From Armatimonadota bacterium (lineage in GTDB: Bacteria; Armatimonadota; UBA5829; DTLH01), in assembly GCA_038207085.1 (NCBI GenBank), contig JBBRAE010000046.1, forward strand, positions 1 to 19,119: a stretch of 19,119 nucleotides of DNA, given 5' to 3'. Below the pieces are notes generated by a model. It was given only the letters and a program-made list of their open reading frames with translations. It ran no database searches and was not told where the DNA came from. Shown piece by piece: positions 115 to 17,739 of the stretch. Each line of letters opens with the position of its first letter. The stretch's first letter is position 1. A program made the position numbers and the translations under genes.

Positions 115-1563
115 ATGAAAAGGTTATCAGCAATTTTCATAGCGGCCGCATTTGTCGCCGCGCCACTTGGGGCAGTTGAAGGGGTTTCTCAGTCCAAGTC
201 TGTCCAACTGACTGTATATAATGGTAACTTCGCGCTTGTCAAAGACGTGAGGACGATTAATCTTAGGGCTGGAATAAATACGATCGATGTCGAGGATGTC
301 GCAGCACAGATCGACCCTACGAGCGTGCTCTTCAAGTCGCTCACAAGTATAGGTTCTGTCGGCATTCTTGAACAAAATTATCAATATGACCTTATCAGCC
401 CGGACAATATTCTGGACAAGAGCGTCGGGCAGCGCATTACGTTTACACGTTTTGACGAGTCCGGCCAGCCCCACACCGAAAGCGGGATACTGCTTTCGCC
501 GCCCAAGAACGGCGGAATCGTGGTCAAGACCGACGACGGGCGCGTGGTGCTCTACCCGCAGGGGCAGATATCGCTCCTCGGCATGCCCGAAGGTTTGCAT
601 CCCAGGCCGACACTGAGCTGGATGCTTCAGGCTACCCAGGCAGGCCCGCAGGACGCGGTGATCAGCTACATTACAAACGGGATCAACTGGAACGCCGACT
701 ACGTCGCACTCGTTAGCGCCGACGACTCATCCCTCGACCTCACGGGCTGGGTGACCCTGAACAACCAGAGCGGCGCAACCTACAACAACGCCAAACTCAC
801 CCTGATGGCCGGGGACGTGCGCCGCGTAAATAGTTCACCGATGCGCTATGATGGGCGTGCAAGAGACGTGATATTGGAGATGGCCGCAGCTCCTCAGTTC
901 GAAGAGAAAAGCTTCTTCGAGTATCACCTCTACACGATGGAACGACCAACGACCATTCGCCAGAGCGAAACCAAGCAGCTTTCGCTCCTGAACGCAGCGA
1001 ACGTGCCTGTAACCAAAGAGATGATCTACGACGGGCGCGGCGACTGGTGGAGAGGCTGGTGGTATCCGGGCAGGACAAGCTTCGACCCCGGCGGCGGCTA
1101 CGACACATCTAACTATCACAAGGTAAACGTCGTCCTGCAGGTGATGAACTCCAAGCAAAACCGCATGGGTATGCCGCTTCCCAAGGGCAAAATCCGGGTC
1201 TACAAGCTCGACGACACCGGCAGCCAGCAGTTCATCGGGGAAGATATGATCGACCATACCCCCAAGGACGAGAAGATCAGGCTCTACCTCGGAGACGCCT
1301 TCGATGTGGTCGGTGATTACAAGAAAGTGAACTTTAAAAAGATCAGCGACAACGTGATCGAAGAGAGCTTTGAGGTATCGGTCCGCAACCACAAAGACAA
1401 GGCAGTCAATGTGAAGGTGGTCGACCACGTCTGGAGCGACTGGAAGATGACGGTCAAGAGCCATGCGTTCACCAAGAAAGACGCCCACACCATCGAGTTC
1501 CCCGTAAGCGTCCCAGCAAACGGCGAAATCAAGGTGACCTACACCATCAGGACTCAGTGGTAA
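115..1563 (+). CDS. Secreted DUF4139/DUF4140-like protein (TIGR02231-like, MuiA family candidate); start moved to ATG 115 downstream of GAGGAGG RBS
   Basis: Long ORF. Cleavable-looking signal peptide MKRLSAIFIAAAFVAAPLGA. N-terminal block VQLTVYNGNFALVKDVRTINLRAGINTIDVEDV resembles the DUF4140 N-domain. Strong SD GAGGAGG at 98-104, about 10 nt before ATG 115; the ORF track begins at GTG 97 inside the SD. Confidence 0.8.
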   Translation: MKRLSAIFIAAAFVAAPLGAVEGVSQSKSVQLTVYNGNFALVKDVRTINLRAGINTIDVEDVAAQIDPTSVLFKSLTSIGSVGILEQNYQYDLISPDNILDKSVGQRITFTRFDESGQPHTESGILLSPPKNGGIVVKTDDGRVVLYPQGQISLLGMPEGLHPRPTLSWMLQATQAGPQDAVISYITNGINWNADYVALVSADDSSLDLTGWVTLNNQSGATYNNAKLTLMAGDVRRVNSSPMRYDGRARDVILEMAAAPQFEEKSFFEYHLYTMERPTTIRQSETKQLSLLNAANVPVTKEMIYDGRGDWWRGWWYPGRTSFDPGGGYDTSNYHKVNVVLQVMNSKQNRMGMPLPKGKIRVYKLDDTGSQQFIGEDMIDHTPKDEKIRLYLGDAFDVVGDYKKVNFKKISDNVIEESFEVSVRNHKDKAVNVKVVDHVWSDWKMTVKSHAFTKKDAHTIEFPVSVPANGEIKVTYTIRTQW

Positions 1564-1577
1564 ACTGACCAAGCGTT

Positions 1578-1613
1578 GTATCGGGGAGCTCTCTCCCCGA
1601 TACTTTCTTCTCT
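1578..1613 (+). terminator. Rho-independent terminator. Stem gtatcggggag / ctccccgatac (11 bp, 1578-1588 / 1593-1603), loop ctct (1589-1592), then tttcttctct (1604-1613). Lies between convergent genes.
   Basis: Perfect 11-bp inverted repeat followed by a T-rich tract on the + strand. Sits directly after the DUF4139 stop and abuts the stop (1612-1614) of the minus-strand AAA gene. Confidence 0.7.
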
Positions 1614-3171
1614 ACGGAGCGTCGTTTTCGGAGACAGGGGTCCCCGAAATAACATTGAAGATATCCAGGCCCTCGGGCGGGATGCTGCTCGCCATTCGGC
1701 AGCGTCGGACGGCCCAGCGGCGAAGCGCGTTGATCTTCTCGCGCACCGTCATCGAAAGCGGGACCGATGCCCCAGCGCAGGCGGCGAGGTCGTCCTGGGT
1801 GAGATCACCCCCATTCCCAAACGCGGCGTACAGGCCGTCGATCACCACCTGCTCGATCTCCGCGCCGCTGAAACCGACCGTCATCGCCGCAAGCGCGTCA
1901 AGATCAAACGAGCCCGGCTCGCGCCTGCGCTTCTTCAGGTGAATCTCGAATATCTCGCGCCGATCATCGACGGCGGGCAGGTCTACAAAGAAAATCTCGT
2001 CAAAGCGTCCCTTTCGCACGAACTCCGGTGGGATCTGGGAGATGTCGTTTGCGGTCGCGACCACGAACACGGGTGCGGTCTTCTCCTGAAGCCAGGTGAT
2101 AAACGAGCCAAAGACCCGCGCGGTCGTTCCGGCGTCGCTGTAGGCCGAACTCTGCGCACCGGCGAATCCCTTTTCGACCTCATCGACCCAGAGGACGCAC
2201 GGCGCGACCGACTCGGCGATCGATATCGCCCGGCGCACGTTTTCTTCTGATGAGCCGACGATGCCGCTGAATATCTTGCCCGCATCGAGCTTGAGGAGCG
2301 GGAGCCTCCAGAGCGAAGCAATCGCCTTGCAGCAGAGCGACTTGCCGCAGCCCTGCACCCCCATCAGCATCACGCCTTTGGGCTGCGGCAGGCCAAACTC
2401 CCGCGCGCGGGTGGTGAAGGAATTGGTGCGCATCTCAAGCCAGCTTTTGAGCGAATCCATCCCGCCGACATCTGCGAACGCCTCGGTCGCGGGGTAGTAC
2501 TCGAGCATCCCCGACTTTCGGATGATCTGCTCTTTTTCGCTCACGATCACATCAAGATCAAGCTGCCTGCGTTCTACCAGAGACTTGGCAAAAACGTTCT
2601 CCGCCTCACCAGCTGTCAGCCCTTGCGCGGCTTTCACGATCACCTCGCGCTCGTCGGGCGCGATATCGGTCTTCACCTGGGAGTTGTCCCGAAGCGACTC
2701 GATGATTCCCTCAAGGAGCGCGTCAAGTTCGGCGACATCGGGGAGCGGGTAGTCGACGACGGTGATCTCTTTTTCAAGCTCGGAGGGAATCTTCAGCACG
2801 GGGGATAGAATCACCAGAGTCTTGCCGCTGGTCTTGAGCGAAACCGCGAGGTCCCGCAGCCGCCGGGTCACCATCTTGTCTGAGACGAACGCGTGGAGGT
2901 CTTTCAAGACAAAGATCGCGTCGCCCCGAAAGTCCATGACGTAATCGAGCGCGGCAATCGGCTCTTTGGTGGAGTCGTCACGCGTCCTCGCTTCAGAGGC
3001 AACCCCGGAGGTCGCCGTCCAAGTATACATCCGAGTCCCGCGCCCCTGCGCGATCCCTCGAATAGCCTCCTCCACCCGTTCCTCCTCAAAAGAAACGACG
3101 TAGATGATCGGGTAGCGCGCGCGGATCAGGGTTTCTATGGTCGAATTAGCCTTGCTGCTGCCGTTTGGCAA
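1612..3171 (-). CDS. ycf46: Ycf46-like AAA+ ATPase (classic AAA clade: Walker A GVQGCGKS, Walker [41 protein letters not shown]) with ~250-aa N-terminal domain
   Basis: 519-aa ORF. N-terminus [17 protein letters not shown] and C-terminal AAA module match the Ycf46 architecture known from cyanobacteria and plastids. SD-like GGAGA sits 4 nt before the ATG. Confidence 0.85.
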
Positions 3172-3223
3172 TGGTATGCTCTCCTATGCACCTGACCCTA
3201 AAGGATCAGGCTTGCAAAGCATC

Positions 3224-3278
3224 AAGCAAGCTAAAGCAAGCTTGACGGTATATTCCCCCAGCTTGCTTCAGCTTGCTT
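3224..3278. repeat. Long imperfect hairpin: 18-bp arms agcaagctaaagcaagct (3225-3242) / agcttgcttcagcttgct (3260-3277), 1 mismatch, 17-nt loop (3243-3259)
   Basis: Inverted repeat read directly from sequence. Lies in the 325-nt spacer between the flotillin stop and the ycf46 start. Confidence 0.55.
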
Positions 3279-3292
3279 TCTGGTCTCTTAGG

Positions 3293-3429
3293 GCGTGTCT
3301 GAGAAATCCCGATTGTAGTGGCCGGTCGCCGTGCCAGCCATCAGCGCCATAGGCGCTGCCCTACGGCTTTCCGGCTCCTTCGGAGCCGATGGCCATCAGG
3401 CGGACGGCCACTACACTTCTCAGACACGC
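3293..3429. repeat. ~137-bp nested palindromic element. Outer stem gcgtgtctgagaa (3293-3305) / ttctcagacacgc (3417-3429), 13 bp. Second stem tgtagtggccg (3314-3324) / cggccactaca (3405-3415), 11 bp. Encloses small hairpins agcgcc-ata-ggcgct (3343-3357) and cggctcc-ttcg-gagccg (3372-3388, UUCG tetraloop on the + strand).
   Basis: Seen directly in sequence. Candidate structured RNA, attenuator, or MITE-like element with terminal inverted repeats. Confidence 0.5.
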
Positions 3430-3496
3430 ACTTAGCGTGATGCTTTAGCGTCACGTGCGGCCGGTTGGGAGGTGTCTCCCCACCGATCACTTGCTC

Positions 3497-5398
3497 TTAC
3501 TTCTCAGCCTTATTCACAGCGCCGTCATGCACCGGCTCGGCTTTGGGCTTCTCGGTAGACTGCGCCTGGATCACGGGGAGGTTGGATTTCACCATGCCAG
3601 CGATCGTTTCGGCCATCTCCGGGGAGATGTTGATCTCCTTGCCGGTTACTTTCTTCACGACCTGACCGAGCATCGTGGCGAGGTCGTCGACGGTCTGGCT
3701 CGGGGTGCGGTCGCTGTCGCTTCCGAGGACGCTTTTGCCGACGCCGTCGAGGAACGCGCCGATTCCGAGGCCCTGCGAGAGCTTGGTGAGCATGTCGGCC
3801 ATCGTCTCGGGCGTGCCATAGACGGTGTAGTTGCCCTGCTGGGCGAAGTTGCCGACGGCCCCTGCAAGAGCGATCTGGATCTCTTTCTTCGCCTGAATCT
3901 CAAGCTTGGAAACCTCAAACTCGATCGCCGACTTCTCAAACTGCTGCTTGAACTCGGCGGTAGACTTGTCGACCTCCATCTGCTTGCGGGAGACCTCTAC
4001 GCGCTCAGCCTCAACCAGCACAGGAACGAACTGGATCGCCTTCTCGCCTTCAGCTAGTCTAGTCTTAGCCTGAGAATCGGCCTCCGCCATTGTAAGCGTG
4101 GCTTTTGCACGGTTTTCGGCGGCGCGGAGATCGCCTTCGGCTTCCTTCTGCTTCTGGTAAGCGAACGAGTCGGCTTCCCTCTGTTTCCGAACAAGCGCCT
4201 GCTCGGCCTCGTTCTGAGCGCCTATCAGCTTCTGCCTGGCTTCTCGCTCTGCTCCGGAGACGACTTCGACCGTCTTCACGTCCTGGTTCGCCTGCTCCCT
4301 TGCGGCCTCGGCCTCAAGCCGTGCCTGCTCAGCCGCGGCGCGCTCCGCTTCCTTCTGAGCGATGGCGATCTGCTGGTCGCGAGTCGCAACCTCAACCGCC
4401 CGAACCTTGTCTACCTCAGTAGTCTGAATCGACTGCTCGCGGGCGATATCGGCCTGCTTCACCGACTGATCTGCGACGATCTGCGCCTGCTGGGTCTGCC
4501 GTTCCTGCTCGATGCGGTAGACATCGGCCTCGCGCAGCTTTTCGCTCTGAACGCGCGCCACCTGCATGTGCTGCTCGGCCTCGGCAAACGCCTGGTCCTG
4601 CTGCATTGTAAGCACGCTCTTGCGGGTCGAGACGTTCTTCAGCGTAGTCGCCTGCTCAGCTGTTCTCTCAAGTTCGTTTCGGGCGACCAGAGCAGCAGTC
4701 GTAATCTCGGTGATCTTGCGCTTGCCCTGGGCGTCAAATACGTTGTTGTCGTTCAGGTGCGACGGGTCGGTCTGGTCGAGCCTTGAGATCGTCACGGTTT
4801 CAAGTATAAGACCGTTTGGCTCGATTTCCTTTGCGACTTGCTCCTGGACCGAGCTTGCGAAGCTCTCGCGATCGCTGTGCAGCTCGGCAAGCTCATGCTT
4901 TGCCGCAACCGAACGAAGCGCGGAGGTCAGTTTTTCACCGACCTTGTTGTCGATCGCGTCCTCGGTGCCGGACTGGTCGCCAAACGACCTCGCCGCGTTC
5001 AGCACCTGCTCCGGTGTCGCCCCTACCCTCATATAGAACTCTGAGTGAACATCCGCGCGCAAGTAGTCCCGAGTGATAAGCGCATCGGGCCCTTCACGGA
5101 CACATGTGAGCTTGATCACTCTAAGCGATACCCGAGTCATCCTGTGCAAAACCGGCCAGACGACGATACCGCCGTCGATTATCACCTTGCTGCCGCCCGC
5201 ACCTGTGCGGACGAGCGCCTCTTCAGCCGACGCCTTCTGGTAAAGCGTCGTGATGATCAAGAAGATCATTCCAATCGCGGTCGTGATTGCGCCGATTATC
5301 AAGAATACGAACTGTCCGACTGTGCTCATGTCCGGGAAGAACCACGGACCGATCACCATCGCCAGTCCAAGCAGAGTCATTAATGCAAACCCCATCAT
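3497..5398 (-). CDS. Flotillin/SPFH (band 7) family protein, YqiK/FloT-like: N-terminal membrane anchor, SPFH domain, long Glu/Ala/Gln-rich coiled coil
   Basis: MMGFALMTLLGLAMVIGPWFF TM segment, followed by ...YQKASAEEALVRTGAGGSKVIIDGGIVVWPV... (SPFH start), then an extended EA-rich heptad region. Start placed at the ATGATG (5398/5395) after GAAAGGAG. The ORF-track start GTG 5494 adds 32 hydrophilic residues and is judged unlikely. Confidence 0.85.
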   Translation of the reverse strand: MMGFALMTLLGLAMVIGPWFFPDMSTVGQFVFLIIGAITTAIGMIFLIITTLYQKASAEEALVRTGAGGSKVIIDGGIVVWPVLHRMTRVSLRVIKLTCVREGPDALITRDYLRADVHSEFYMRVGATPEQVLNAARSFGDQSGTEDAIDNKVGEKLTSALRSVAAKHELAELHSDRESFASSVQEQVAKEIEPNGLILETVTISRLDQTDPSHLNDNNVFDAQGKRKITEITTAALVARNELERTAEQATTLKNVSTRKSVLTMQQDQAFAEAEQHMQVARVQSEKLREADVYRIEQERQTQQAQIVADQSVKQADIAREQSIQTTEVDKVRAVEVATRDQQIAIAQKEAERAAAEQARLEAEAAREQANQDVKTVEVVSGAEREARQKLIGAQNEAEQALVRKQREADSFAYQKQKEAEGDLRAAENRAKATLTMAEADSQAKTRLAEGEKAIQFVPVLVEAERVEVSRKQMEVDKSTAEFKQQFEKSAIEFEVSKLEIQAKKEIQIALAGAVGNFAQQGNYTVYGTPETMADMLTKLSQGLGIGAFLDGVGKSVLGSDSDRTPSQTVDDLATMLGQVVKKVTGKEINISPEMAETIAGMVKSNLPVIQAQSTEKPKAEPVHDGAVNKAEK

Positions 5399-5505
5399 TT
5401 GCTCCTTTCGAAAATGGCGGTTTGTGCCATTTTGATTCCCGTTGTGGTAAAGACGGCAGTAGCGCGGGCTTTGCGCTGCGAGAATCTTTATCACAACTCC
5501 TTTCG

Positions 5506-6135
5506 TTATAACAGATCACTTTTCCGGACTACAAAGCGCTTCTCGTCTTCGTCGTAATCGATCACCACCACGTCCGTACCCGGTGCGATCACACTTTCCC
5601 CCTCCTGAACTTTCGCCTGGACCCGATGCACGGTGCCGTACTGGTCCCGGACGTTGATGGTGCCGGACTTCTCGGTGGCTTGATACACGGTATGACCGAG
5701 AAGTCCAACGAGTTGGCGGCGCTCGACGCCGAAAGTCTCATCCCTTGGGGTGATCCGCCCGACGATCTCAGCCACGGCGCGAGTCACAGTGAAACTCGCG
5801 ACAAGCGTAATGAGTATCGATGGCAGGATAAGCGCGCTCGGATGGTCGAGAATCCCCATAACACGGTTGATGAGCATACCAATCGAGCCCCATGTAAGCA
5901 TCAGCAAGCCGACGAGCATGGATATAGAAACATCTCCCGCGCCTACAAAGGCAAGAAACCTGCTCATCCCGTGTCCGTCGCCGAGGTCAGCGTCTGAGTC
6001 GGCCCCGTCACCGAGGTCGTCCCCCGAGCTCTCCTGCATCCCACCGACGACGCTTATCAGAATCCAAAGCACCGATACAGCCAGCGGAAGCGTGTATATC
6101 AGGTTCCACCAGTTGAGAAGGTAGTGGTAAGACAT
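5506..6135 (-). CDS. NfeD/YqiJ-like flotillin-associated membrane protein (paralog 1). Asp/Gly-rich acidic insert, C-terminal OB-fold-like beta domain.
   Basis: Layout is TM helix, then DDLGDGADSDADLGDGHG insert, then 2-3 TM helices, then C-terminal GTVHRVQAKVQEGESVIAPGTDVVVIDYDEDEKRFVVRKSDL typical of short NfeD/YqiJ proteins encoded beside flotillins. SD GAGGGGA before the ATG. 9-nt gap to the upstream paralog. Confidence 0.75.
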   Translation of the reverse strand: MSYHYLLNWWNLIYTLPLAVSVLWILISVVGGMQESSGDDLGDGADSDADLGDGHGMSRFLAFVGAGDVSISMLVGLLMLTWGSIGMLINRVMGILDHPSALILPSILITLVASFTVTRAVAEIVGRITPRDETFGVERRQLVGLLGHTVYQATEKSGTINVRDQYGTVHRVQAKVQEGESVIAPGTDVVVIDYDEDEKRFVVRKSDLL

Positions 6136-6144
6136 GTTATCCCC

Positions 6145-6906
6145 TCAAATATCGCTTTTTCGGACGATAAAGCGCTTGTCTTCGTCGTCGTAGTCGACGA
6201 CAATCACCTCAGTCCCGGCGGCGATGCTCTCATTGGCGTCCTCGCTCTTGGCCTGGACGCGGTGGACAGTGCCGGAATGGTCTTTGATATCGATCGTCCC
6301 GGTGGTCTCGCTTACTGTGAAGACGCTTCGTCCAAGCGAGCCGACGAGTTCCAGTAGTGAAACCCCAAAGGTCTCGTCCCGGGGCATAATCCGTCCGACG
6401 ATCTCCGCAATCGCCCGCGTCACCGTCGCACTTACGACAAACGCGACAGCCATCGAAGGCCAGATGAAAAGCGACGGATAGTGAAGCACCCCGAAGAGCT
6501 TGTTGGCAAGCAGACCAAACGACCCCCAGCACAGCAGGAACATTGCGACCATAAGGCTGAGCGGTGCTTCGTCAAGGCCGAGGACCATCATAAACTTGCT
6601 CGCGCCGCTCGACGACTCACCATCGTGATGTTGCGCGTGCCCATCGTGTGAGGCATGTGAGGCGTGCGCATGCGCGCCGTCGTGTGCTACTGAAGTGTGG
6701 GCATGGGCGTGCAATTGGGCGTGGATGCGATCCCCCGCGTGGTGCAGAGCGTGGCTCACGGAGTGTCCCCCACCATGTCCGTGCGCGTGACCCTGCCCGT
6801 GTCCGTGGCCCCCGGCGAGCGCTGTAGAGACAATCCACAGCACCGAGAGCGCAAGCGGAAGCGCGTAGATCAGGTTCCACCATTGCAGCAAATCAGTTAC
6901 CGACAT
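6145..6906 (-). CDS. NfeD/YqiJ-like flotillin-associated membrane protein (paralog 2) with ~70-aa histidine-rich insert
   Basis: N- and C-termini are paralogous to 5506..6135 (MSVTDLLQWWNLIYALPLALSVLW... / ...GTVHRVQAKSEDANESIAAGTEVIVVDYDDEDKRFIVRKSDI). Insert is GHGHGQGHAHGHGGGHSVSHALHHAGDRIHAQLHAHAHTSVAHDGAHAHASHASHDGHAQHHDGESS. Strong SD GGGGAGGA 8 nt before the ATG. Confidence 0.8.
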   Translation of the reverse strand: MSVTDLLQWWNLIYALPLALSVLWIVSTALAGGHGHGQGHAHGHGGGHSVSHALHHAGDRIHAQLHAHAHTSVAHDGAHAHASHASHDGHAQHHDGESSSGASKFMMVLGLDEAPLSLMVAMFLLCWGSFGLLANKLFGVLHYPSLFIWPSMAVAFVVSATVTRAIAEIVGRIMPRDETFGVSLLELVGSLGRSVFTVSETTGTIDIKDHSGTVHRVQAKSEDANESIAAGTEVIVVDYDDEDKRFIVRKSDI

Positions 6907-6950
6907 TTTATTATCCTCCCCTCAGAGGAATGAACCACGTCCGGGCGCAA

Positions 6951-7766
6951 TTACTGCTCGGTTGTCTCACCGGACGACTTGTCTCCGGCGTTTCCCTGCT
7001 GAACCTGCTGCTCTTGCGCGACTTCTTCGGTCGATTCGGCCACGTGGCCGTTTCCGATCTCCGCGGAGAGCTTTTTGAACCGTTTTTCTGTGTCAGATAG
7101 CCCCATCTCGGCCTTTAGCTCGGACAGCGCTTGGTTTGCCCTGGCCTGACGCGCCGCCTGACGCACCTGATGAAGCTTTTGCTCGTCGCCGAGCTGCGCG
7201 ATGTCACCAATCGCCTGACTCTCGGCGTAGGCATGGTCTGCGCGCTCCTCAAGTCGCTCAAGCGCCTTCATGTCCTCGTCTAGCGACGGCGACATGGCGA
7301 ACTTCTGCACCTGTGCGCGCATTGTCGCGAGCTGATAGCGCATCTGAGCGTTTCGAGCGCGATCGGCAGCCTCTTTCAGCTCGTCCTGAAACATCTCGAT
7401 CTGACCTTTGGCCTCGGCGGCGTGCAGCCTTGCAGCCTCAAGCTGGGTTTTCAGGTCGTCGACACGGGCCTGACAGGACTCCATCTGAAGCAAAAGGTTC
7501 CCCGCAAGCTCATCTTCGTTCTGGGTGACAGCCGCGCGGGCGTCGCCGTCAAGCTGCGCGAGTTTCTTCTCCTCCGCCTCAAGCATCCGCTCGATCCTGT
7601 ACTGGTTCGCGATCACCGGGACCGCTGACGTTTTGAGATCGGCGAGCTTCTGCTTCATGCTTTCGATCACATAAGGACCGATGACGGCGGGATTCTCGTA
7701 CTTGATCAGGCCGAAACTGATAGTGGACAGTATTATTCTTTTGACCCTTTGGAGAATATCTCCCAT
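6951..7766 (-). CDS. pspA: PspA/IM30 (Vipp1/LiaH) family membrane-stress protein, bacterial ESCRT-III superfamily
   Basis: 271 aa. N-terminal amphipathic helix MGDILQRVKRIILSTISFGL, then ...IKYENPAVIGPYVIESMKQKLADLKTSAV... aligning to the PspA EDPxKMLxQ region. Continuous coiled coil and an acidic/Gln-rich tail. SD GGGGGTG 6 nt before the ATG. Confidence 0.85.
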   Translation of the reverse strand: MGDILQRVKRIILSTISFGLIKYENPAVIGPYVIESMKQKLADLKTSAVPVIANQYRIERMLEAEEKKLAQLDGDARAAVTQNEDELAGNLLLQMESCQARVDDLKTQLEAARLHAAEAKGQIEMFQDELKEAADRARNAQMRYQLATMRAQVQKFAMSPSLDEDMKALERLEERADHAYAESQAIGDIAQLGDEQKLHQVRQAARQARANQALSELKAEMGLSDTEKRFKKLSAEIGNGHVAESTEEVAQEQQVQQGNAGDKSSGETTEQ

Positions 7767-7787
7767 TGTTCACACCCCCGACCAAGC

Positions 7788-7818
7788 ATATATACAGCCC
7801 AGTGCCTAGTTGCCACAA
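7788..7818 (-). promoter_or_regulatory. Candidate sigma70-type promoter for pspA (minus-strand -10 TATATA at ~7788-7793; weak -35 TTGTGG at 7813-7818; 19-nt spacer). Direct repeats ATTGTGCCA / ATTGTGGCA lie just upstream.
   Basis: Hexamers read on the minus strand. No sigma54 -24/-12 (TGGCAC-N5-TTGCA) match was found despite the PspA context. Confidence 0.3.
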
Positions 7819-7888
7819 TCATAGCATAATACCCATTTTGGCACAATAGTTATTGGTTGGGAGTTTTTGAGCCCGTGAATGATGAAAG

Positions 7889-8680
7889 TTAGTACGTTGG
7901 GTTGGCCATCCGAGCGTTGTACTTGGAGACGTACCAGGGATAGCGGTCGGCGTAAGCGGGGAGTTCGCGTCCTTGATAGCGGGTAGGCGCTGAGGGGGCG
8001 ACGTGCCCATCACAGTAGAGATAGTTGTTCCGCCGGTCGTGCCAGGGAAACTCGGCGTTGGGCATATGTTCGTGCTTCGACCAGCCCCGCACGCATGTCC
8101 AGTCGCCGCATCTGTAGATGTAGTCTCCGGGATAGCTGTAGAAGCTGTCTGGGGTAGCCCCTTCATACAGCAAAATAGTCTTCTTTGGAATCTCGATGAG
8201 CCCCTCCGGGCAGCCAAACAAGTGCCAGGACCCCGAAAGATTTCTCAAGGTAATATTATAGGACTTGTCGTGAAACCCGCCGCCTCTGATATAGGAGTTC
8301 ATGGAATAAGTGCGGGCGGCGTATCTTCCGTCCCACCGATGCAGATCCGGGCAGCACCAGACACTCCCCACCCCACCTTTGCTTCTGACGTATCTCACGA
8401 GCCCCCCGTTGCCGGACTGGTTCCATGCGTTGTAATCGCCGAGCTTACCACCGGGCGAAGGATAAACCCTGTTCCAATCGTCCAAGTACATCTGAAACGC
8501 TATGCCGAGCTGCTTTAGATTCGAAGCACACTTCACAAGATTCGCTTGACGCTTCGAGCTCACGATCACAGGAAAGAGTATCGCGGCAAGAAGCGCAATA
8601 ATACCAATAACCAAAAGCAGCTCGGCAAGCGTAAAGCCTCTGCAACAACATTTCAGACGTACCAAAGCCTCACCCCACAC
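7889..8680 (-). CDS. DUF1559 (H-X9-DG) protein with type IV prepilin-like N-terminal cleavage/methylation domain
   Basis: Prepilin motif RG|FTLAELLLVIGIIALLAAILFPV. C-terminal ...NYLYCDGHV... fits the DUF1559 H-X9-DG family typical of Planctomycetota, Verrucomicrobiota and Armatimonadota. A short leader implies an internal start (GTG 8680 or TTG 8665, after a GGGGTGAGG SD-like stretch) rather than ATG 8737. Confidence 0.7.
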   Translation of the reverse strand: MWGEALVRLKCCCRGFTLAELLLVIGIIALLAAILFPVIVSSKRQANLVKCASNLKQLGIAFQMYLDDWNRVYPSPGGKLGDYNAWNQSGNGGLVRYVRSKGGVGSVWCCPDLHRWDGRYAARTYSMNSYIRGGGFHDKSYNITLRNLSGSWHLFGCPEGLIEIPKKTILLYEGATPDSFYSYPGDYIYRCGDWTCVRGWSKHEHMPNAEFPWHDRRNNYLYCDGHVAPSAPTRYQGRELPAYADRYPWYVSKYNARMANPTY

Positions 8681-8816: not shown

Positions 8817-9203
8817 TTACCGCCTTGGGCCGTACTGGTACCCCGGAAGCGGACCAAACCTCGGCTGGTTGTACTGATAGGACTGCCTCGGATAGTAGTA
8901 TCCTCTATAGTAAGGATGGTTAGGATAATACGGTCTGTACATCGGGTATGGTTGGACGATGACTACATTCGGATAGCCTCCGTAGTAGCGATTTCCATAG
9001 CCCCCACGGCCGTAGTAACCTCGCCCATAGTAGCCGTGACCGTATCCGGATCCGACGCCAATCGACACGCCTCCCCCTCCACCGTGGCCCCAGCTTCCGG
9101 CTCCAATTGACACGCCTACATAGGCAAATGCTGTGCCTGCGATCAGAAGCGCTCCCATCGCAGCGGCGACTAATATTATAAGAAGAACTCTTCTTGTGTT
9201 CAT
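8817..9203 (-). CDS. Secreted Gly/Tyr-rich low-complexity protein (YGHGYYGRGYYGRGGYGNRYYGGY...PYYRGYYYP)
   Basis: Start moved to ATG 9203 (MNTRRVLLIILVAAAMGALLIAGTAFA signal/anchor). The rest is G/Y/R/P-rich. The ORF-track start at 9296 adds a non-signal extension. Confidence 0.7.
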   Translation of the reverse strand: MNTRRVLLIILVAAAMGALLIAGTAFAYVGVSIGAGSWGHGGGGGVSIGVGSGYGHGYYGRGYYGRGGYGNRYYGGYPNVVIVQPYPMYRPYYPNHPYYRGYYYPRQSYQYNQPRFGPLPGYQYGPRR

Positions 9204-9346
9204 TTTCAGGCCTTCACCAGTGCGGCTGAGAGACTCAGCCGGCGATTTGGAGAGGTGAACTCTCCGTAATATGTTTTTACCCGGATATTTCCACATCCTT
9301 GCATGCTCGCATGTTTAGGCATCGTGGCTATATGTGAAAAACATGC

Positions 9347-9518: not shown

Positions 9519-9878
9519 TTGGCTAACAAATCTCTTTATGTAGGCAATATGCCCTACAACACCACCGAAGACGATCTTCGCGGCATCTTCAACGAGTTCG
9601 GACCGATCGCCGACGTGCGAATCATCGGCGACAAGGGTTTCGGGTTCGTTGAGATCCCTGAGGAGAACGTCGCAGCAGCCATCGAATCGACCAACGGTCG
9701 CGACGTAGGCGGCAGACCCCTCACCGTCAACGAAGCTCGCCCGAAGACTGAAGGCGGCGGACGAAGCGGTGGCGGCGGTGGTCGTGGCGGCTACGGTGGC
9801 GGCGGTGGTGGCCGAAGCGGCGGTGGTGGTGGCGGTGGCTACGGTGGTGGTGGCGGTGGCGGCAGAAGCCGCTGGTAG
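9519..9878 (+). CDS. Glycine-rich RNA-binding protein: single RRM (RNP-2 LYVGNM, RNP-1 KGFGFVEI) plus C-terminal GGX/RGG tail
   Basis: TTG start at 9519 with GAAGG SD 7 nt upstream. The downstream ATG 9549 would delete the beta1/RNP-2 strand. The tail is GGGRSGGGGGRGGYGGGGGG... Confidence 0.85.
   Translation: MANKSLYVGNMPYNTTEDDLRGIFNEFGPIADVRIIGDKGFGFVEIPEENVAAAIESTNGRDVGGRPLTVNEARPKTEGGGRSGGGGGRGGYGGGGGGRSGGGGGGGYGGGGGGGRSRW
9753..9866 (+). repeat. GGN/GGY codon tandem repeat (simple sequence) encoding the Gly-rich tail
   Basis: ggcggcggtggt... periodicity read directly. It generates spurious His/Arg-rich antisense ORFs. Confidence 0.6.
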
Positions 9879-10115: not shown

Positions 10116-10139
10116 TAGGCACTTATCAACATGTGCCTA
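10116..10139 (+). promoter_or_regulatory. Operator-like inverted repeat TAGGCAC-ttatcaacat-GTGCCTA between the -10 and the abiEi start
   Basis: 7-bp perfect arms (10116-10122 / 10133-10139). AbiEi antitoxins are established autorepressors that bind inverted repeats in their own promoter. Confidence 0.4.
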
Positions 10140-10162
10140 CGTTTTGTACACGGGGAAATCCA

Positions 10163-10765
10163 GTGAAATCTGAAAGAACAGAGCAGGCGCTTGAGATAAT
10201 CAAAACAAAGGGACTTGTGCGCACCAGGGACTTGACAGCCTTGGGCATCCGCAGAGATTATCTGGCCACACTTCTTCGAGAAGGTCTAATCGAGCGTGTC
10301 AGTCGAGGCATATACATTCTGCCTGGACTGGATACGACCGAGCATCACAGCCTCGCAGAAGCATCAAAGAGAGTTTCTAAAGGAATAGTGTGCCTTCTCT
10401 CTGCGCTCAGATTCCACGGACTGACAACACAGAATCCTTCCAGAGTCTGGATGGCAATAGATCGAAAGGCATGGCTACCGGAACTTGACACACCACTCGT
10501 CCAGCTCGTGCGATTTTCAGGAAAAGCTCTGGAATACGGAATCGAAGAACACACAATCGAAGGTGTGAACGTTCGTGTCTATAACCCAGCTAAAACCGTC
10601 GCCGACTGCTTCAAATACCGCAACAAGATAGGCCAGGACGTAGCTCTTGAAGCGCTCCGGGACTGCTGGAAACAGCGTAGAGCCACGATGGATCACCTCT
10701 GGGAAGCAGCAGAGGCTTGCCGAGTGGCGAGGATAATGCGTCCGTACTTGGAGTCGCTTGTATGA
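10163..10765 (+). CDS. abiEi: AbiEi-family antitoxin / transcriptional regulator (type IV TA)
   Basis: ...ALEIIKTKGLVRTRDLTALGIRRDYLATLLREGLIERVSRGIYIL... matches the AbiEi winged-helix N-domain. Start chosen at GTG 10163 (GGGGA SD 7 nt upstream). The in-frame ATG 10133 lacks an SD and overlaps the operator. The stop overlaps the abiEii start (ATGA). Confidence 0.8.
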   Translation: MKSERTEQALEIIKTKGLVRTRDLTALGIRRDYLATLLREGLIERVSRGIYILPGLDTTEHHSLAEASKRVSKGIVCLLSALRFHGLTTQNPSRVWMAIDRKAWLPELDTPLVQLVRFSGKALEYGIEEHTIEGVNVRVYNPAKTVADCFKYRNKIGQDVALEALRDCWKQRRATMDHLWEAAEACRVARIMRPYLESLV

Positions 10766-11676
10766 GCGACAAAGAGATAAAGAATCTGCCCGGCTCCGTA
10801 CGCCAGCGCCTTCTGAACATCGCCAAGGATAAGGGTGAGGACTTTCAGCTATTCCTGGATCGTTACGCCGCCGAAAGATTCCTTTACCGCCTGAGCAAGT
10901 CCGAATACAGCAGTGGCTTCGCACTGAAGGGTGCAACACTATTTGCTATTTGGTCGGAAGCCCCCTACAGATCAACAAGAGATATTGATCTCCTCGTGTG
11001 GGGCAACAACTCCGTGAGCCAACTGGAGGAGCTGTTTCGCCATGTCTGCAATATGGACGTGGAAGACGATGGTCTGGTATTCGACAGAAACACTCTCAAA
11101 GCTACGGAGATAAACGAGGACGAGGAATATACGGGAGTGCGGGTCAATCTAATCACCCTTCTCGGTGTCGCAAAGGCAAACGTTCAGATTGATGTCGGTT
11201 TTGGCGACGTAATCACTCCCAAAGCCGTGGAAGTCCAGTGCCCGAGCATTCTCGGATTCCCGTCAGCCGTGATGCTGGCTTATCCTATGGAAACAGTCAT
11301 AGCCGAAAAGGTCCAGGCTATGGTGATGCTTGGCATGGTCAACAGCAGGCTGAAGGACTTTTCGGATATTCATCACCTTGCCAGCAAGTTTGAGTTTCAA
11401 GGCTCGACGCTTTGCGAGGCGCTCAGAACTACTTTTGCACGAAGGCAGACGGAACTGCCAAAGGACATTCCTACAGCGCTCACAGAGCGTTATTATGGAA
11501 GTGGCGAACGAGAAGCGCAGTGGAAAGCATTCAAGAAGAAGACCGCCGTGAAGTCTCCGCTGACTTTTGCGGAAACGTGCCTGTCCCTGCAGCAGTTTCT
11601 GATGCCCCCGTTGACGGCCGTCGGTGCTGACGAGCCTTTCACCAAGACTTGGCGGCCAAGCGGCCCATGTCAGTAA
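10762..11676 (+). CDS. abiEii: AbiEii/AbiGii-family nucleotidyltransferase toxin (type IV TA)
   Basis: MSDKEIKNLPGSVRQRLLNIAKDKGEDFQLFLDRYAAERFLYRLS... and ...YRSTRDIDLL... (NTase motif). ATG 10762-10764 overlaps the abiEi TGA 10763-10765. The ORF-track start 10717 is an upstream extension. Confidence 0.85.
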   Translation: MSDKEIKNLPGSVRQRLLNIAKDKGEDFQLFLDRYAAERFLYRLSKSEYSSGFALKGATLFAIWSEAPYRSTRDIDLLVWGNNSVSQLEELFRHVCNMDVEDDGLVFDRNTLKATEINEDEEYTGVRVNLITLLGVAKANVQIDVGFGDVITPKAVEVQCPSILGFPSAVMLAYPMETVIAEKVQAMVMLGMVNSRLKDFSDIHHLASKFEFQGSTLCEALRTTFARRQTELPKDIPTALTERYYGSGEREAQWKAFKKKTAVKSPLTFAETCLSLQQFLMPPLTAVGADEPFTKTWRPSGPCQ

Positions 11677-11715: not shown

Positions 11716-11792
<77 letters not shown>

Positions 11793-12854: not shown

Positions 12855-13445
12855 CTATTTGGCGGGCTTTTCTGCCGGCTTCTCGGTTGCAACGATGCGG
12901 ACGGTTTTCATTACGTCGCCCATCTCGATCTTCTTGACTACGTCGAGCCCCTCGGTCACTCGACCGAACACGGCGTACTGCATGTCAAGAAACGGAGTGG
13001 CGTCCAGTGTTACATAGAACTGGCTTGTCGCACTGTTGGGATCGTTGGTCCTGGCCATCGCAACCACCCCTGCGGCGTCATGCTTCAGCTTGGGGCTCAC
13101 CTCAAGCGGGATCGTCTTCTCGGAACCCCCTGTGCCGTCGCCTCTCGGGTCCCCACCCTGGATGACAAACCCAGGCACAACCCTGTGAAACTTCAGGCCA
13201 TCGTAAAACTTCTTGTTGGCAAGCTCGATGAAGTTCTTGCTCGTAATAGGGGCGTCCTTTTCGTAAAGGCTGATCTTGAACGTTCCCTTGTTTGTCTCGA
13301 CTACAGCGATATGCTCAACCGCTAGTTTCTCTTGCACTGGTTTCTTCTCCTTAGCCGGTTTGGCTTTCGGCTTAGCCGCTGTGGCTGCGGACGCTGCCAC
13401 GGCAAAAGCCATTGCGAAAACAACACACTTACTGACCAATTTCAT
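12855..13445 (-). CDS. Secreted cyclophilin-type peptidyl-prolyl cis-trans isomerase
   Basis: Signal peptide [23 protein letters not shown]. Cyclophilin signature [37 protein letters not shown] 7 nt before the ATG. Confidence 0.9.
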
Positions 13446-13482: not shown

Positions 13483-14121
13483 CTACCACTTTAGCTTCTT
13501 GATCTGCTCAAGGTCTTTTGCAGTCGGCTTGGATACTGACACAGTCTTCATAACGTCGCCGGGCATAATGGCGTCGACGACTTTCTGACCTGCAAACACC
13601 CGGCCAAATGAGGCGTAACTGCCGGTCCAGTCCGGATACGGATACTTGTTGATGAAGAACTGGCTCGTAGCGCTGTTGGGATCGTTGGTCCTCGCCATTC
13701 CGACCATATATACCTGATCAAACCCAAGGCCTGACTTGATCTCAAGCGGGATCGTCTTCTCCGAACCACCGGTGCCGTCACCCTTGGGGTCGCCGCCCTG
13801 GATCACAATCTCCTCAACTCGGTGGAACTTCAGTCCGTTGTAGAACTTTCGGTTGGCGAGCTGAATGAAGTTCTTGGTGGTCGTAGGCACGTCCTTCTCA
13901 AAGAGGACAAACTTGATATCGCCCCACTTGGTCGAAACTGTCACTATGCTGCCGGGCTCAAAGCTTGCCGACGGAACCGCTTTCGGCTTCTGCGCCTGTT
14001 CCTGCTTCTGGTCCTTGGCGTGCGATTCTTCGCCCTCGTCAGTGCTGGTCTGCCGGTTAAGCGCCATTCCGACGCCTACGAGCGCCGCAAGTACGAAAAA
14101 GAATAGGAGCTTTGTTTTCAT
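13483..14121 (-). CDS. Secreted or membrane-anchored cyclophilin-type PPIase (paralog) with ~50-aa acidic/Gln-rich N-terminal linker
   Basis: [29 protein letters not shown]. Start moved to ATG 14121 (MKTKLLFFFVLAALVGVGMAL). The ORF-track start 14172 runs into the upstream hairpin. Confidence 0.85.
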   Translation of the reverse strand: MKTKLLFFFVLAALVGVGMALNRQTSTDEGEESHAKDQKQEQAQKPKAVPSASFEPGSIVTVSTKWGDIKFVLFEKDVPTTTKNFIQLANRKFYNGLKFHRVEEIVIQGGDPKGDGTGGSEKTIPLEIKSGLGFDQVYMVGMARTNDPNSATSQFFINKYPYPDWTGSYASFGRVFAGQKVVDAIMPGDVMKTVSVSKPTAKDLEQIKKLKW

Positions 14122-14142
14122 ATCTCCCCCGATGTAATAAGA

Positions 14143-14172
14143 ATGTGGGGCAAGCCTGGGCAAGCCCCACAT
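14143..14172 (-). terminator. Hairpin atgtggggc-N12-gccccacat between the thioredoxin-like gene and cyclophilin 2; possible attenuator or partial terminator
   Basis: 9-bp perfect stem. On the minus strand it is followed by TCTTATTACAT, which is only moderately U-rich. Confidence 0.3.
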
Positions 14173-15640: not shown

Positions 15641-16204
15641 CTATTTGCGTCTAAGCTTCAGTCCAACAAGTCCCATAAGACCCGTTGCGAGCGCCAAAAC
15701 GCTAGCAGGCTCAGGAACAGGGGAAGGACCGAACGTCTGGCCACTGTATCCATAGCTGTCCTGCGAAGATGCAAAGGCAGTCTTGGACGTGTCGGGAGCG
15801 AGGGTGCTGCGGAAGGACACGATAATGGGTGTGCCGCCAACCGAGACCGGTCGCAGAGCGCTGCCCTCACCCTGGGCGACCCACCAGATCATGTTCTCTT
15901 CGCCGGCCCACACGCTGTGCGACCAACCAGTGGGATCGGTGATGGCGGTGAAGCCAGTAACTGGCGTTTCATTCGCAAATGTCAGACTGAACCCGACAAT
16001 GCTGTCGCGCTGAGTGTCGTTTGCGAGGGTGTATGAGTAGATGTACCCCCCCCCGTCTGCCACGCAGTCAGGCGTGATACTGAGAGTTCCAGTTGACCCT
16101 GCTGCGTACATCGTCGTTGCTACCCATCCCGCAGGCGCGGCAAAGGCAACACACGAAAGAGCAACTAGAACGACCGCTGCGATACTTACAACAATCCTAT
16201 TCAT
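15641..16204 (-). CDS. PEP-CTERM sorting-domain secreted protein
   Basis: Start ATG 16204 (MNRIVVSIAAVVLVALSCVAFA) with AAGGAGG SD. C-terminus ...PSPVPEPASVLALATGLMGLVGLKLRRK is the PEP motif plus TM plus basic tail. Confidence 0.85.
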   Translation of the reverse strand: MNRIVVSIAAVVLVALSCVAFAAPAGWVATTMYAAGSTGTLSITPDCVADGGGYIYSYTLANDTQRDSIVGFSLTFANETPVTGFTAITDPTGWSHSVWAGEENMIWWVAQGEGSALRPVSVGGTPIIVSFRSTLAPDTSKTAFASSQDSYGYSGQTFGPSPVPEPASVLALATGLMGLVGLKLRRK

Positions 16205-16285
16205 TAATCTATTTCCTCCTTTACTTGTGTTATGGGTTTGGATTAGAACATTGAGCACGTAGACTCAATTCAAAGTTCGTGTAAG

Positions 16286-17101
16286 TTAGGCTGTCCGCCG
16301 CTTTCGCAAAACACACGGCCCCAGCAACCGGACAAGTCCAAGTATTCCAGTCGATGATAGCCAAGTAGGCAATTCAGGCACCACGGTGTCAGCACCGTTG
16401 ATATTGTGTCCATTTGCTACTATCTCAGGCCCATAGGTGTGTCCGGATAGACTCATTGATGCATCGATAACATACTGATTGAAGATATCCGGAGAGAGAT
16501 TACTGATGTAGCTAAACTCAACAGCAGTCCCTGGACGCAGCCCCGGATTGCCAGTGGATTGGGCAACACCATCAGCGTTCAACACTGTGTTTGTCCACCA
16601 TATCTCATCCCTTACTGGATGTCCAAGAGTAGTAAGTTTTTTGGAGTCCCACTCTTCATGACGCCATGTGTATACAGCGACTGGGTTGGTACTCGAACTA
16701 TTGAATGGCTGTTTCAGATCTATGGGTTCAAACCTCGTGACCTGATCACTAATCGTCCAGCCACTAAAATTCAGCAGACCGTTAAACGTCATGCTGAACG
16801 AGTGAAGCGGCCGGATGTCCTGCCCGGCGTAAAAGTCTGTTGGCATATACAGACAGTATCGGTAATCATACCCTGAGCCCACTTGAGTATATTTAGCACC
16901 CAGAGACAACCATCTGCTCGTATCAATAGTATTTTCGTTTATTCTGGAGTATAGATTTGCGCCCAACCAAGTATTCGGAGCCCACGTGTCACAGTAGCCA
17001 TTCCTTGCGACTGCTAGTGTGAGCAACGTTACCGCCAACGCGACCAGCGCTGCGCGCAGTGTTAAGCATCGGTATAAACGGTTGTCTCTTTCACCTAACA
17101 T
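16286..17101 (-). CDS. Secreted hypothetical protein with degenerate PEP-CTERM-like C-terminal anchor (VPELPTW...TM...RKRR)
   Basis: N-terminal signal-like LRAALVALAVTLLTLAVA. C-terminus VVPELPTWLSSTGILGLVRLLGPCVLRKRRTA. SD GGGGGA before the ATG. Confidence 0.7.
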   Translation of the reverse strand: MLGERDNRLYRCLTLRAALVALAVTLLTLAVARNGYCDTWAPNTWLGANLYSRINENTIDTSRWLSLGAKYTQVGSGYDYRYCLYMPTDFYAGQDIRPLHSFSMTFNGLLNFSGWTISDQVTRFEPIDLKQPFNSSSTNPVAVYTWRHEEWDSKKLTTLGHPVRDEIWWTNTVLNADGVAQSTGNPGLRPGTAVEFSYISNLSPDIFNQYVIDASMSLSGHTYGPEIVANGHNINGADTVVPELPTWLSSTGILGLVRLLGPCVLRKRRTA

Positions 17102-17181: not shown

Positions 17182-17739
17182 TTACTTTCTTCGCCGAATC
17201 ATCGGCAGGCCAATACCAGCGATGCCGGCGAAAAGCGCGGCAAGAGTTCCAGGCTCAGGAGCCGCCGGGCCGTAGGTGTTTCCACTGAAACCATAGTAGG
17301 TGCCCTGCGAAGACACATTCACATTCTGCACCGGTGACGGGCCGTAGACCGAGGTAAACCCGAAGGTCTTTGTCTGGCCGACGGCGATTCGGTCAACTGA
17401 CGTAGCGCTAGGGCCCAAGCTCCATCCGATCTTGTTGTCTCCGTTGGTGGTTCGCACAACAAACGTCCAGTTGGACGGAGCGACAATGTAGGTCAACTCC
17501 GACACCGGAACATCTGCCGAGAACACCAGAGTAAAGCCGTACACGGACCCACGCGACCCGAGGTTGGTCAGATCGTAGGAGTAGGCGTAACCACCGGTGA
17601 TCTGGGTGCAGTGAGGCGTTACCTGAAGTGAATCAGCGGTTCCGATAGCAGTCAATGTTGATGTATCCCAAACAGGAACATCGGCGTGCGCTGCGCACGC
17701 AACCACGAGCAGAGCGAGTAAGACAACCATTCTTTTCAA
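17182..17739 (-). CDS. PEP-CTERM sorting-domain secreted protein (paralog of 15641..16204)
   Basis: TTG start 17739 with GGAGG SD 8 nt upstream (MKRMVVLLALLVVACAAHA). C-terminus ...GPAAPEPGTLAALFAGIAGIGLPMIRRRK. Shares TP(D/H)C...GGY(I/A)YSY(T/D)L and G(Y/F)SG(Q/N)T(F/Y)GP blocks with the paralog. Confidence 0.85.
   Translation of the reverse strand: MKRMVVLLALLVVACAAHADVPVWDTSTLTAIGTADSLQVTPHCTQITGGYAYSYDLTNLGSRGSVYGFTLVFSADVPVSELTYIVAPSNWTFVVRTTNGDNKIGWSLGPSATSVDRIAVGQTKTFGFTSVYGPSPVQNVNVSSQGTYYGFSGNTYGPAAPEPGTLAALFAGIAGIGLPMIRRRK

Follow-up and report, generated by a model that had tools for sequence, protein, structure and literature searches.

A Ycf46-family AAA+ ATPase next to a PspA-flotillin operon in a small clade of Armatimonadota

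The gene described here encodes an AAA+ ATPase and lies on the minus strand of a 19,119-nucleotide (nt) stretch of DNA from an Armatimonadota bacterium (positions 1 to 19,119 of contig JBBRAE010000046.1, assembly GCA_038207085.1; the whole stretch analysed is referred to as the window). Judged by comparison with named proteins, its product is a full-length member of the Ycf46 family, and the gene adds one more member to a known, poorly understood family. It follows genes for PspA, two YqiJ/NfeD-like membrane proteins and flotillin. The overall reading that we consider probable is a tandem AAA+ remodeller of the Ycf46 type which, in one lineage, has come to lie beside a self-sufficient psp/flotillin operon.

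Identity of the ATPase

1612..3171, minus strand: Ycf46-family AAA+ ATPase gene (open reading frame and translation, 519 amino acids; 47% end-to-end identity to a named Ycf46)

The family assignment rests on direct comparison with proteins that already carry the name. BLASTP of the window ATPase against a Nostoc protein (P0428) gave 47% identity over 494 aligned residues (12-496 against 5-493, E 2e-163). The Nostoc protein is named "stress-responsive protein Ycf46" in UniRef, several of its cluster mates are so named at NCBI, and related UniRef/NCBI clusters are labelled "AAA domain-containing protein ycf46". A scan of species-representative genomes yielded 80 loci, 26 of them cyanobacterial with 46-50% full-length identity to the window ATPase, and the products of three of these cyanobacterial loci (L060, L077 and L088) are named "stress-responsive protein Ycf46" in UniRef. 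The sequence-only reading that preceded this analysis had called the protein Ycf46-type from its layout; the end-to-end identity, the matching layout and the conserved N-terminal signature all bear this out.

Profile searches were made against Pfam-A and NCBIfam. Neither library returned a Ycf46-specific model, even for a named Ycf46, and the named protein and the window ATPase share generic sub-threshold matches to CDC48, PAN and FtsH. The profile libraries thus cannot settle Ycf46 identity, which is why the window ATPase was tied to the name by direct comparison. Best profile matches to FtsH or other AAA subfamilies had been put forward as grounds against the name; such matches do occur, but they are generic and uninformative, since a named Ycf46 behaves alike.

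The candidate families tried and rejected were as follows. FtsH, CDC48 and PAN scored 89 against 600, 98 against 803 and 92 against 500 bits, respectively, with the AAA core alone aligning. The IetA/IteA anti-phage ATPases were below cut-off, the PADLOC IetA matches spanning residues 256-487, and no IetS-type protease adjoins the gene. Vps4/CdvC was set aside on an NCBIfam CdvC score of 75.8 bits (cut-off 650), the lack of an MIT domain and a PspA linkage confined to one small clade, and PspF-type enhancer-binding AAA+ proteins were set aside on the absence of a Sigma54_activat or HTH domain by Pfam.

The gene begins with a TTG codon that has an AGGAG-like sequence a few bases upstream, and its relatives start at the equivalent position (M-A/P-N-G-S). 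Composition is unremarkable. The closest homologues come from metagenome-assembled genomes of Armatimonadota, and in a neighbour-joining tree (no outgroup, no support values) the window ATPase falls in an Armatimonadota clade within the family radiation, apart from the cyanobacteria.

Domain anatomy

2497..3171, minus strand: degenerate D1-like AAA domain, residues 1-225 (alpha/beta core and helical lid), without P-loop or arginine fingers
3073..3123, minus strand: family signature YP-x-IY...S/T-x-EE-x-R, residues 17-33, with S-x-E-E-x-R at the usual AAA P-loop position
1672..2496, minus strand: active classical AAA module (D2) with lid and conserved C-terminal helix, residues 226-500
2338..2361, minus strand: Walker A GVQGCGKS, residues 271-278 (G271, G274, G276 and K277 invariant)
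2179..2199, minus strand: Walker B strand ...VLWVDE, residues 325-331 (D330 and E331; columns nearly invariant)
1996..2022, minus strand: second region of homology (SRH) FVRKGRFDE, residues 384-392 (R386 and R389 nearly invariant)

Conservation was judged on an alignment of 35 diverse family members, and an AlphaFold2 model was built on the same alignment (mean predicted local distance difference test score, pLDDT, 90; predicted template modelling score, pTM, 0.84). Both sequence motifs quoted in the sequence-only reading are present in the open reading frame, the 17-residue N-terminal motif at residues 17-33 and FVRKGRFDE at 384-392, and the classic C-terminal AAA that it described was recovered as Pfam AAA (residues 267-397, E 3e-26) and AAA_lid_3 (422-457). 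This module carries the two Walker motifs, a conserved sensor 1 residue (N375), a hydrophobic pore loop and the two SRH arginines R386 and R389, which by analogy with other AAA proteins are putative arginine fingers. Positions P471, L472, W486 and A494 are conserved at the C-terminal end.

Pfam returned no domain in residues 1-230. In the model, a single helix (residues 4-17) runs straight into a D1-like alpha/beta core; residues 20-160 form a beta-alpha-beta core and residues 170-220 a helical bundle, together a second AAA-like unit before the catalytic one. The signature motif comes after the model strand at residues 22-26, and within it E29 and E30 are nearly invariant and R32 is invariant. 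The N-terminal half is a decayed duplicate of a classical AAA domain; with the P-loop replaced by S-x-EE-x-R and the arginine fingers gone, the usual mode of ATP binding is not available to it.

The fold resembles that of substrate-threading remodellers including Vps4, spastin and NVL. A sequence search of the Protein Data Bank matched the D2 domains of Cdc48/p97 (E 1e-50), with the AAA core alone matched and no solved relative spanning the N-domain. Similarity to the type II AAA ATPases (NVL/Rix7, Pex1/Pex6, p97) is likewise confined to D2; unlike in those proteins, the D1 of the window ATPase cannot bind nucleotide, an N-domain is lacking, and the protein is about 300 residues shorter. In comparison with Vps4/CdvC, the ATPase of ESCRT-III disassembly, it has no MIT domain and an additional degenerate D1, and its linkage to ESCRT-III-like genes is not conserved. 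Among known systems, the cyanobacterial and plastid Ycf46 (Slr0374 of Synechocystis PCC 6803; Synpcc7942_0417) is collinear over its whole length at 47% identity and has the same N-terminal motif, degenerate D1 with active AAA, and C-terminal helix.

Position behind the PspA-flotillin genes

6951..7766, minus strand: PspA/IM30 (ESCRT-III superfamily) gene (Pfam PspA_IM30 E 5e-25; NCBIfam PspA match under cut-off)
6145..6906, minus strand: YqiJ/NfeD-like membrane protein, copy 1, with a His-rich insert (YqiJ_N E 1e-5, translation)
5506..6135, minus strand: YqiJ/NfeD-like membrane protein, copy 2 (weak YqiJ_N match; paralogue of the 6145-6906 gene)
3497..5494, minus strand: flotillin (SPFH/Band_7) gene (Pfam Band_7 E 5e-20; the public contig record has a 632-amino-acid product)
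3172..3496, minus strand: hyper-structured spacer of 325 nt from flotillin to the ATPase gene (minimum free energy -179.6 kcal/mol, z -11.2; 0/100 shuffles equal)

The ATPase gene had been placed directly downstream of the flotillin, NfeD and PspA genes. It does lie downstream of them on the same strand, the minus strand, which the sequence-only reading did not name, but not directly: gaps within the PspA-flotillin block are 9-44 nt, while 325 nt (3172-3496) separate flotillin from the ATPase gene.

In the neighbour-joining tree the window protein groups with P0002, P0003, P0006 and P0007 in one clade, and the block was found in four of these five sampled lineages. It is present in P0006 (73% identity) and P0007 (71%), as in the window; for P0003 (79%) the flotillin end alone falls on the contig. 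In P0002, the closest relative (82% identity), there is no block, and a different gene, not flotillin, ends 6 nt upstream. Nor is the block present in four sister lineages (P0010, P0011, P0013 and L092) or in P0047 and P0049, which are more distant. Since it is limited to one small clade of uncultured Armatimonadota, it counts as one evolutionary event; the juxtaposition is lost or absent in P0002. Flotillin orthologues that share 76-78% identity stand in PspA-YqiJ-flotillin or YqiJ-flotillin clusters without any ATPase. Together with P0002, these ATPase-free operons indicate that the juxtaposition arose once, beside an operon that works without the ATPase, and was later lost at least once. 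We read the adjacency of the ATPase and the PspA/flotillin genes as a lineage-specific event that says little of the family generally.

On two near-identical metagenome contigs, one and the same flotillin is intact or split into open reading frames of 102 and 522 amino acids (L007 7529-9460 and L008 7965-9896), a frameshift or assembly error.

In every lineage the largest gap of the block is the one from flotillin to the ATPase gene, at 96-186 nt in the relatives and 325 nt in the window. The window spacer folds into several long nested hairpins, and it has no counterpart in the relatives, whose shorter gaps are without similar sequence. An Rfam search of the window returned nothing for the spacer (one tRNA was the sole match), and no further copies were found in the window or in 183 loci. 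A scan of positions 1400-8000 for consensus promoters and terminators placed no site in the flotillin-ATPase gap, and the counts were at shuffle level. Either an inserted inverted-repeat element or an RNA element of local occurrence may account for the spacer. So stable a structure makes simple read-through from flotillin less certain.

Gene neighbours and distribution across the family

The census of neighbours covered 160 loci drawn from genomes and metagenomes, each with flanks of up to 10 kb, in which six-frame open reading frames were searched using the window PspA, flotillin and NfeD proteins and DUF1257 and DUF2997 seeds as queries. Upstream sequence reaches 3 kb or more at 112 loci, all of them outside the clade, and at none of these was PspA or flotillin found. 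Searches for PspA, flotillin and NfeD by phmmer (to E 10) and jackhmmer in up to 171 loci returned nothing outside the small Armatimonadota clade, and in the Clostridium members examined (a search with the C. butyricum plasmid copy as query, and inspected C. perfringens and C. butyricum loci) PspA was not found nearby by Pfam. Within the literature library searched, no publication mentions Ycf46 together with PspA. The suggestion that the window arrangement would give a functional clue for the whole Ycf46 family is accordingly not supported at the level of gene neighbourhood, where co-occurrence of the family with PspA or flotillin had been proposed as a check: the block is confined to the small clade.

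The usual neighbours are different ones. They encode the small proteins DUF1257 (Ycf35-like) and DUF2997. Among the 123 loci whose downstream sequence reaches 1 kb or more, 65 have DUF1257, and DUF2997 is present at 36 of the 160. All 26 cyanobacterial loci have the gene between a small gene and a DUF1257 gene, a layout that matches the published three-gene stress operons slr0373-slr0374(Ycf46)-slr0376 and Synpcc7942_0416-0418; the small upstream gene was read provisionally as ribbon-helix-helix or zinc-ribbon from its sequence, with no Pfam support. Plasmids of Bacillus, Paenibacillus and Rhodococcus carry a module of the AAA gene with DUF1257 and DUF2997, often with 4Fe-4S and helix-hairpin-helix genes. 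In this form, at loci L011 and L180-L183, the family travels on large plasmids or phage-plasmids. The operon with DUF1257 occurs in many phyla besides the cyanobacteria, yet it is a frequent associate and no defining feature of the protein. Neither gene neighbours the window ATPase, which thus differs from cyanobacterial Ycf46 in standing outside the three-gene stress operon as well as in its separate Armatimonadota clade.

An exhaustive search found over 150 clusters at 50% identity with alignments spanning residues 10-497. The family is represented in Myxococcota, Chloroflexota, Planctomycetota, Sumerlaeota, Nitrospinota, Firmicutes, Actinobacteria, Spirochaetes and archaea, on 86 plasmids (of Treponema, Bacillus, Paenibacillus, Clostridium, Arthrobacter, Rhodococcus and cyanobacteria) and, at full length, in 41 phage genomes, among them Catdawg-like mycobacteriophages (annotated AAA-ATPase) and a Streptococcus satellite phage. 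With so wide a distribution, a non-photosynthetic host is the norm for the Ycf46 family, and the non-photosynthetic setting of the window gene is not the unusual feature that it had been taken to be. The phenotypes reported for cyanobacterial Ycf46 (CO2 utilisation, stress induction, KaiC interaction) do not transfer to such a host.

Firmicutes copies are 79-98% identical across Clostridium, Lysinibacillus, Bacillus and Psychrobacillus, and the C. perfringens and C. butyricum loci (L010, L172-L174) share a cassette in which the AAA gene stands between genes for proteins of 294 and about 506-515 amino acids, near WYL regulators; the outer two gave no Pfam domain above threshold. The high identity and the cassette suggest recent horizontal spread, possibly of a conflict system.

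Inteins interrupt some family genes, in certain cases together with a homing endonuclease. In P0121 and P0122 an intein splits the AAA module just past the Walker B strand (near window residue 328), and P0166 has a Hint/homing-endonuclease insert before the part of the AAA module that follows the P-loop (near residue 277). Two domain fusions were also found, in P0133 and P0161, one of TerD and one of a trypsin-like peptidase with the Ycf46 module. The fusions fit an unfoldase with variable clients, and the peptidase fusion hints at use as an AAA+ protease-like motor in some lineages.

Explanations of the arrangement

Under the reading that we favour, the N-terminal half would probably act as a non-catalytic D1 ring holding the hexamer together, by analogy with type II AAA proteins, and the C-terminal half, with Walker A, Walker B, sensor 1, the two SRH arginines and the pore loop, would be a complete AAA motor. 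Judging from fold and motifs, this D2 motor would spend ATP on threading, pulling or unfolding its client proteins. The gene would have come to lie behind a self-sufficient PspA-YqiJ/NfeD-flotillin operon in an ancestor of one small Armatimonadota clade, and the most that the adjacency would imply, for this clade, is a local client or co-regulation with membrane stress. In these lineages the ATPase may be functionally linked to PspA or flotillin.

Several points weigh against the favoured reading. Within the clade the four-gene block keeps the same order on one strand while both flanks vary (a pilin-like gene and a DUF4139 gene in the window; an M17 peptidase and a methyltransferase at L008; FTCD_C and a PAS protein at L176), and a constant block between varying flanks is the pattern expected from selection for linkage. 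Operons of PspA, YqiJ/YuaF, Band-7/flotillin and an AAA+ ATPase are known from other phyla, for example in Dokdonia (ANH61663.1; Ravi et al. 2024, mSystems, PMC11237479), with the same gene order and strand. PspA has also been reported beside an "inactive classical AAA + classical AAA" protein in Clostridium sp. BNL1100 (AEY64320.1/AEY64321.1) and other bacteria (PMC11237479), an architecture that is the same as that of the window ATPase when compared by description only. Lastly, the absence of PspA and flotillin from the 112 loci holds for a sample of relatives at roughly 45-70% identity with a few Firmicutes, actinobacterial and spirochaete plasmids, and not for the whole family.

One alternative is that, in this clade, the PspA-YqiJ-flotillin system includes the ATPase as a functioning component, which would be co-expressed with it and would use ATP to disassemble or recycle PspA (ESCRT-III-like) polymers or flotillin/NfeD cages as a functional analogue of Vps4. 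In its favour, the order is conserved on one strand in four lineages with different flanks, the published operons imply that a "slot" for an ATPase exists, PspA beside an inactive AAA + AAA protein is on record in other bacteria, the fold is like that of Vps4, spastin and NVL, and the role would be unfilled, as a Vps4-like ATPase appears to be absent in bacteria according to a recent review. Against it, the linkage is one evolutionary event, lost or absent in P0002; the flotillin operon of close relatives operates with no ATPase; and PspA and flotillin are missing from every other informative locus. No MIT or other substrate-recognition domain precedes D1, and of the gaps in the block the one preceding the ATPase gene is always the largest, occupied in the window by the very stable 325-nt structure. 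The published operons differ as well: their ATPase belongs to another family, with a beta-propeller and coiled coil, whereas the last gene in the window is Ycf46-type and follows a long gap, and the gene is missing from the flotillin operons of close relatives. We hold this alternative to be unlikely. The more specific proposal that a Ycf46-type protein was recruited as a disassembly or recycling factor for PspA or flotillin/NfeD, replacing the unrelated slot ATPase, and by extension that cyanobacterial Ycf46 acts on Vipp1/IM30, appears more doubtful still, and a Vps4-like role for Ycf46 in general is much less likely than one in this clade.

The gene could also be cargo of a mobile or conflict system (phage, plasmid or defence island), like the IetA/IteA-type AAA ATPases, that landed beside the psp cluster by chance. 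Full-length members in 41 phage records and on 86 plasmids, Firmicutes copies 79-98% identical across genera and near WYL regulators, members with inteins or a fused trypsin-like protease, an AbiE toxin-antitoxin pair 7 kb away in the window and weak IetA/IteA matches would all fit. Against this, the IteA score is 71.9 bits where the cut-off is 510 and covers the generic AAA core alone, a named Ycf46 gives the same match, the window gene has neither a partner protease nor a mobile-element gene next to it, composition is unremarkable, and the Armatimonadota copies track a coherent clade. Of the explanations considered, chance landing of mobile cargo seems to us very improbable, and the tandem Ycf46 remodeller with a lineage-specific adjacency is retained.

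Other features of the window

1578..1603, no strand assigned: palindromic GC-rich hairpin between the ATPase and DUF4139 genes, terminator-like (11-bp stem, 7 G-C pairs, plus-strand T-run; consensus match)

The ATPase gene is convergent with the DUF4139 gene, the hairpin lying between the two. Farther along, the plus strand carries a complete AbiEi/AbiEii toxin-antitoxin (abortive infection) pair (10133-10765 and 10717-11676; PADLOC E 1e-88 and 6e-107) beside a tRNA gene on the minus strand (11719-11792); the pair may be a small integrated island.

Secreted proteins are encoded at several places on the minus strand. Two tandem paralogues (12855-13445 and 13483-14172) have a cyclophilin-type signature (FHRV...IQGGDP), and their DNA contains repeat blocks that are 74-86% identical and about 640 nt apart. 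Three further secreted proteins are neighbours (15641-16258, 16286-17101 and 17182-17739), at least two of which end, from their translations, in a PEP-CTERM-like sorting signal (VPEP/APEP, a hydrophobic stretch and RRK). A small Gly/Tyr/Arg-rich secreted protein without a Pfam match is encoded at 8817-9296, near a GGC/GGT-rich degenerate tandem repeat of 7 overlapping copies (9753-9875).

Significance

We know of no mechanism for Ycf46. As corrected here, the picture of the family is that of an AAA+ protein with two domains that is widespread and often mobile, and that usually stands with DUF1257 and DUF2997 as its partners. Operons combining PspA, flotillin and an ATPase are, as a general theme, already in the literature (PMC11237479). 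A dedicated AAA+ partner for the disassembly of bacterial ESCRT-III-like polymers (PspA, Vipp1) would matter, if true, since a Vps4-like partner is regarded in the field as apparently absent from bacteria. The small, defined Armatimonadota clade is a place where the PspA hypothesis could be tested cheaply.

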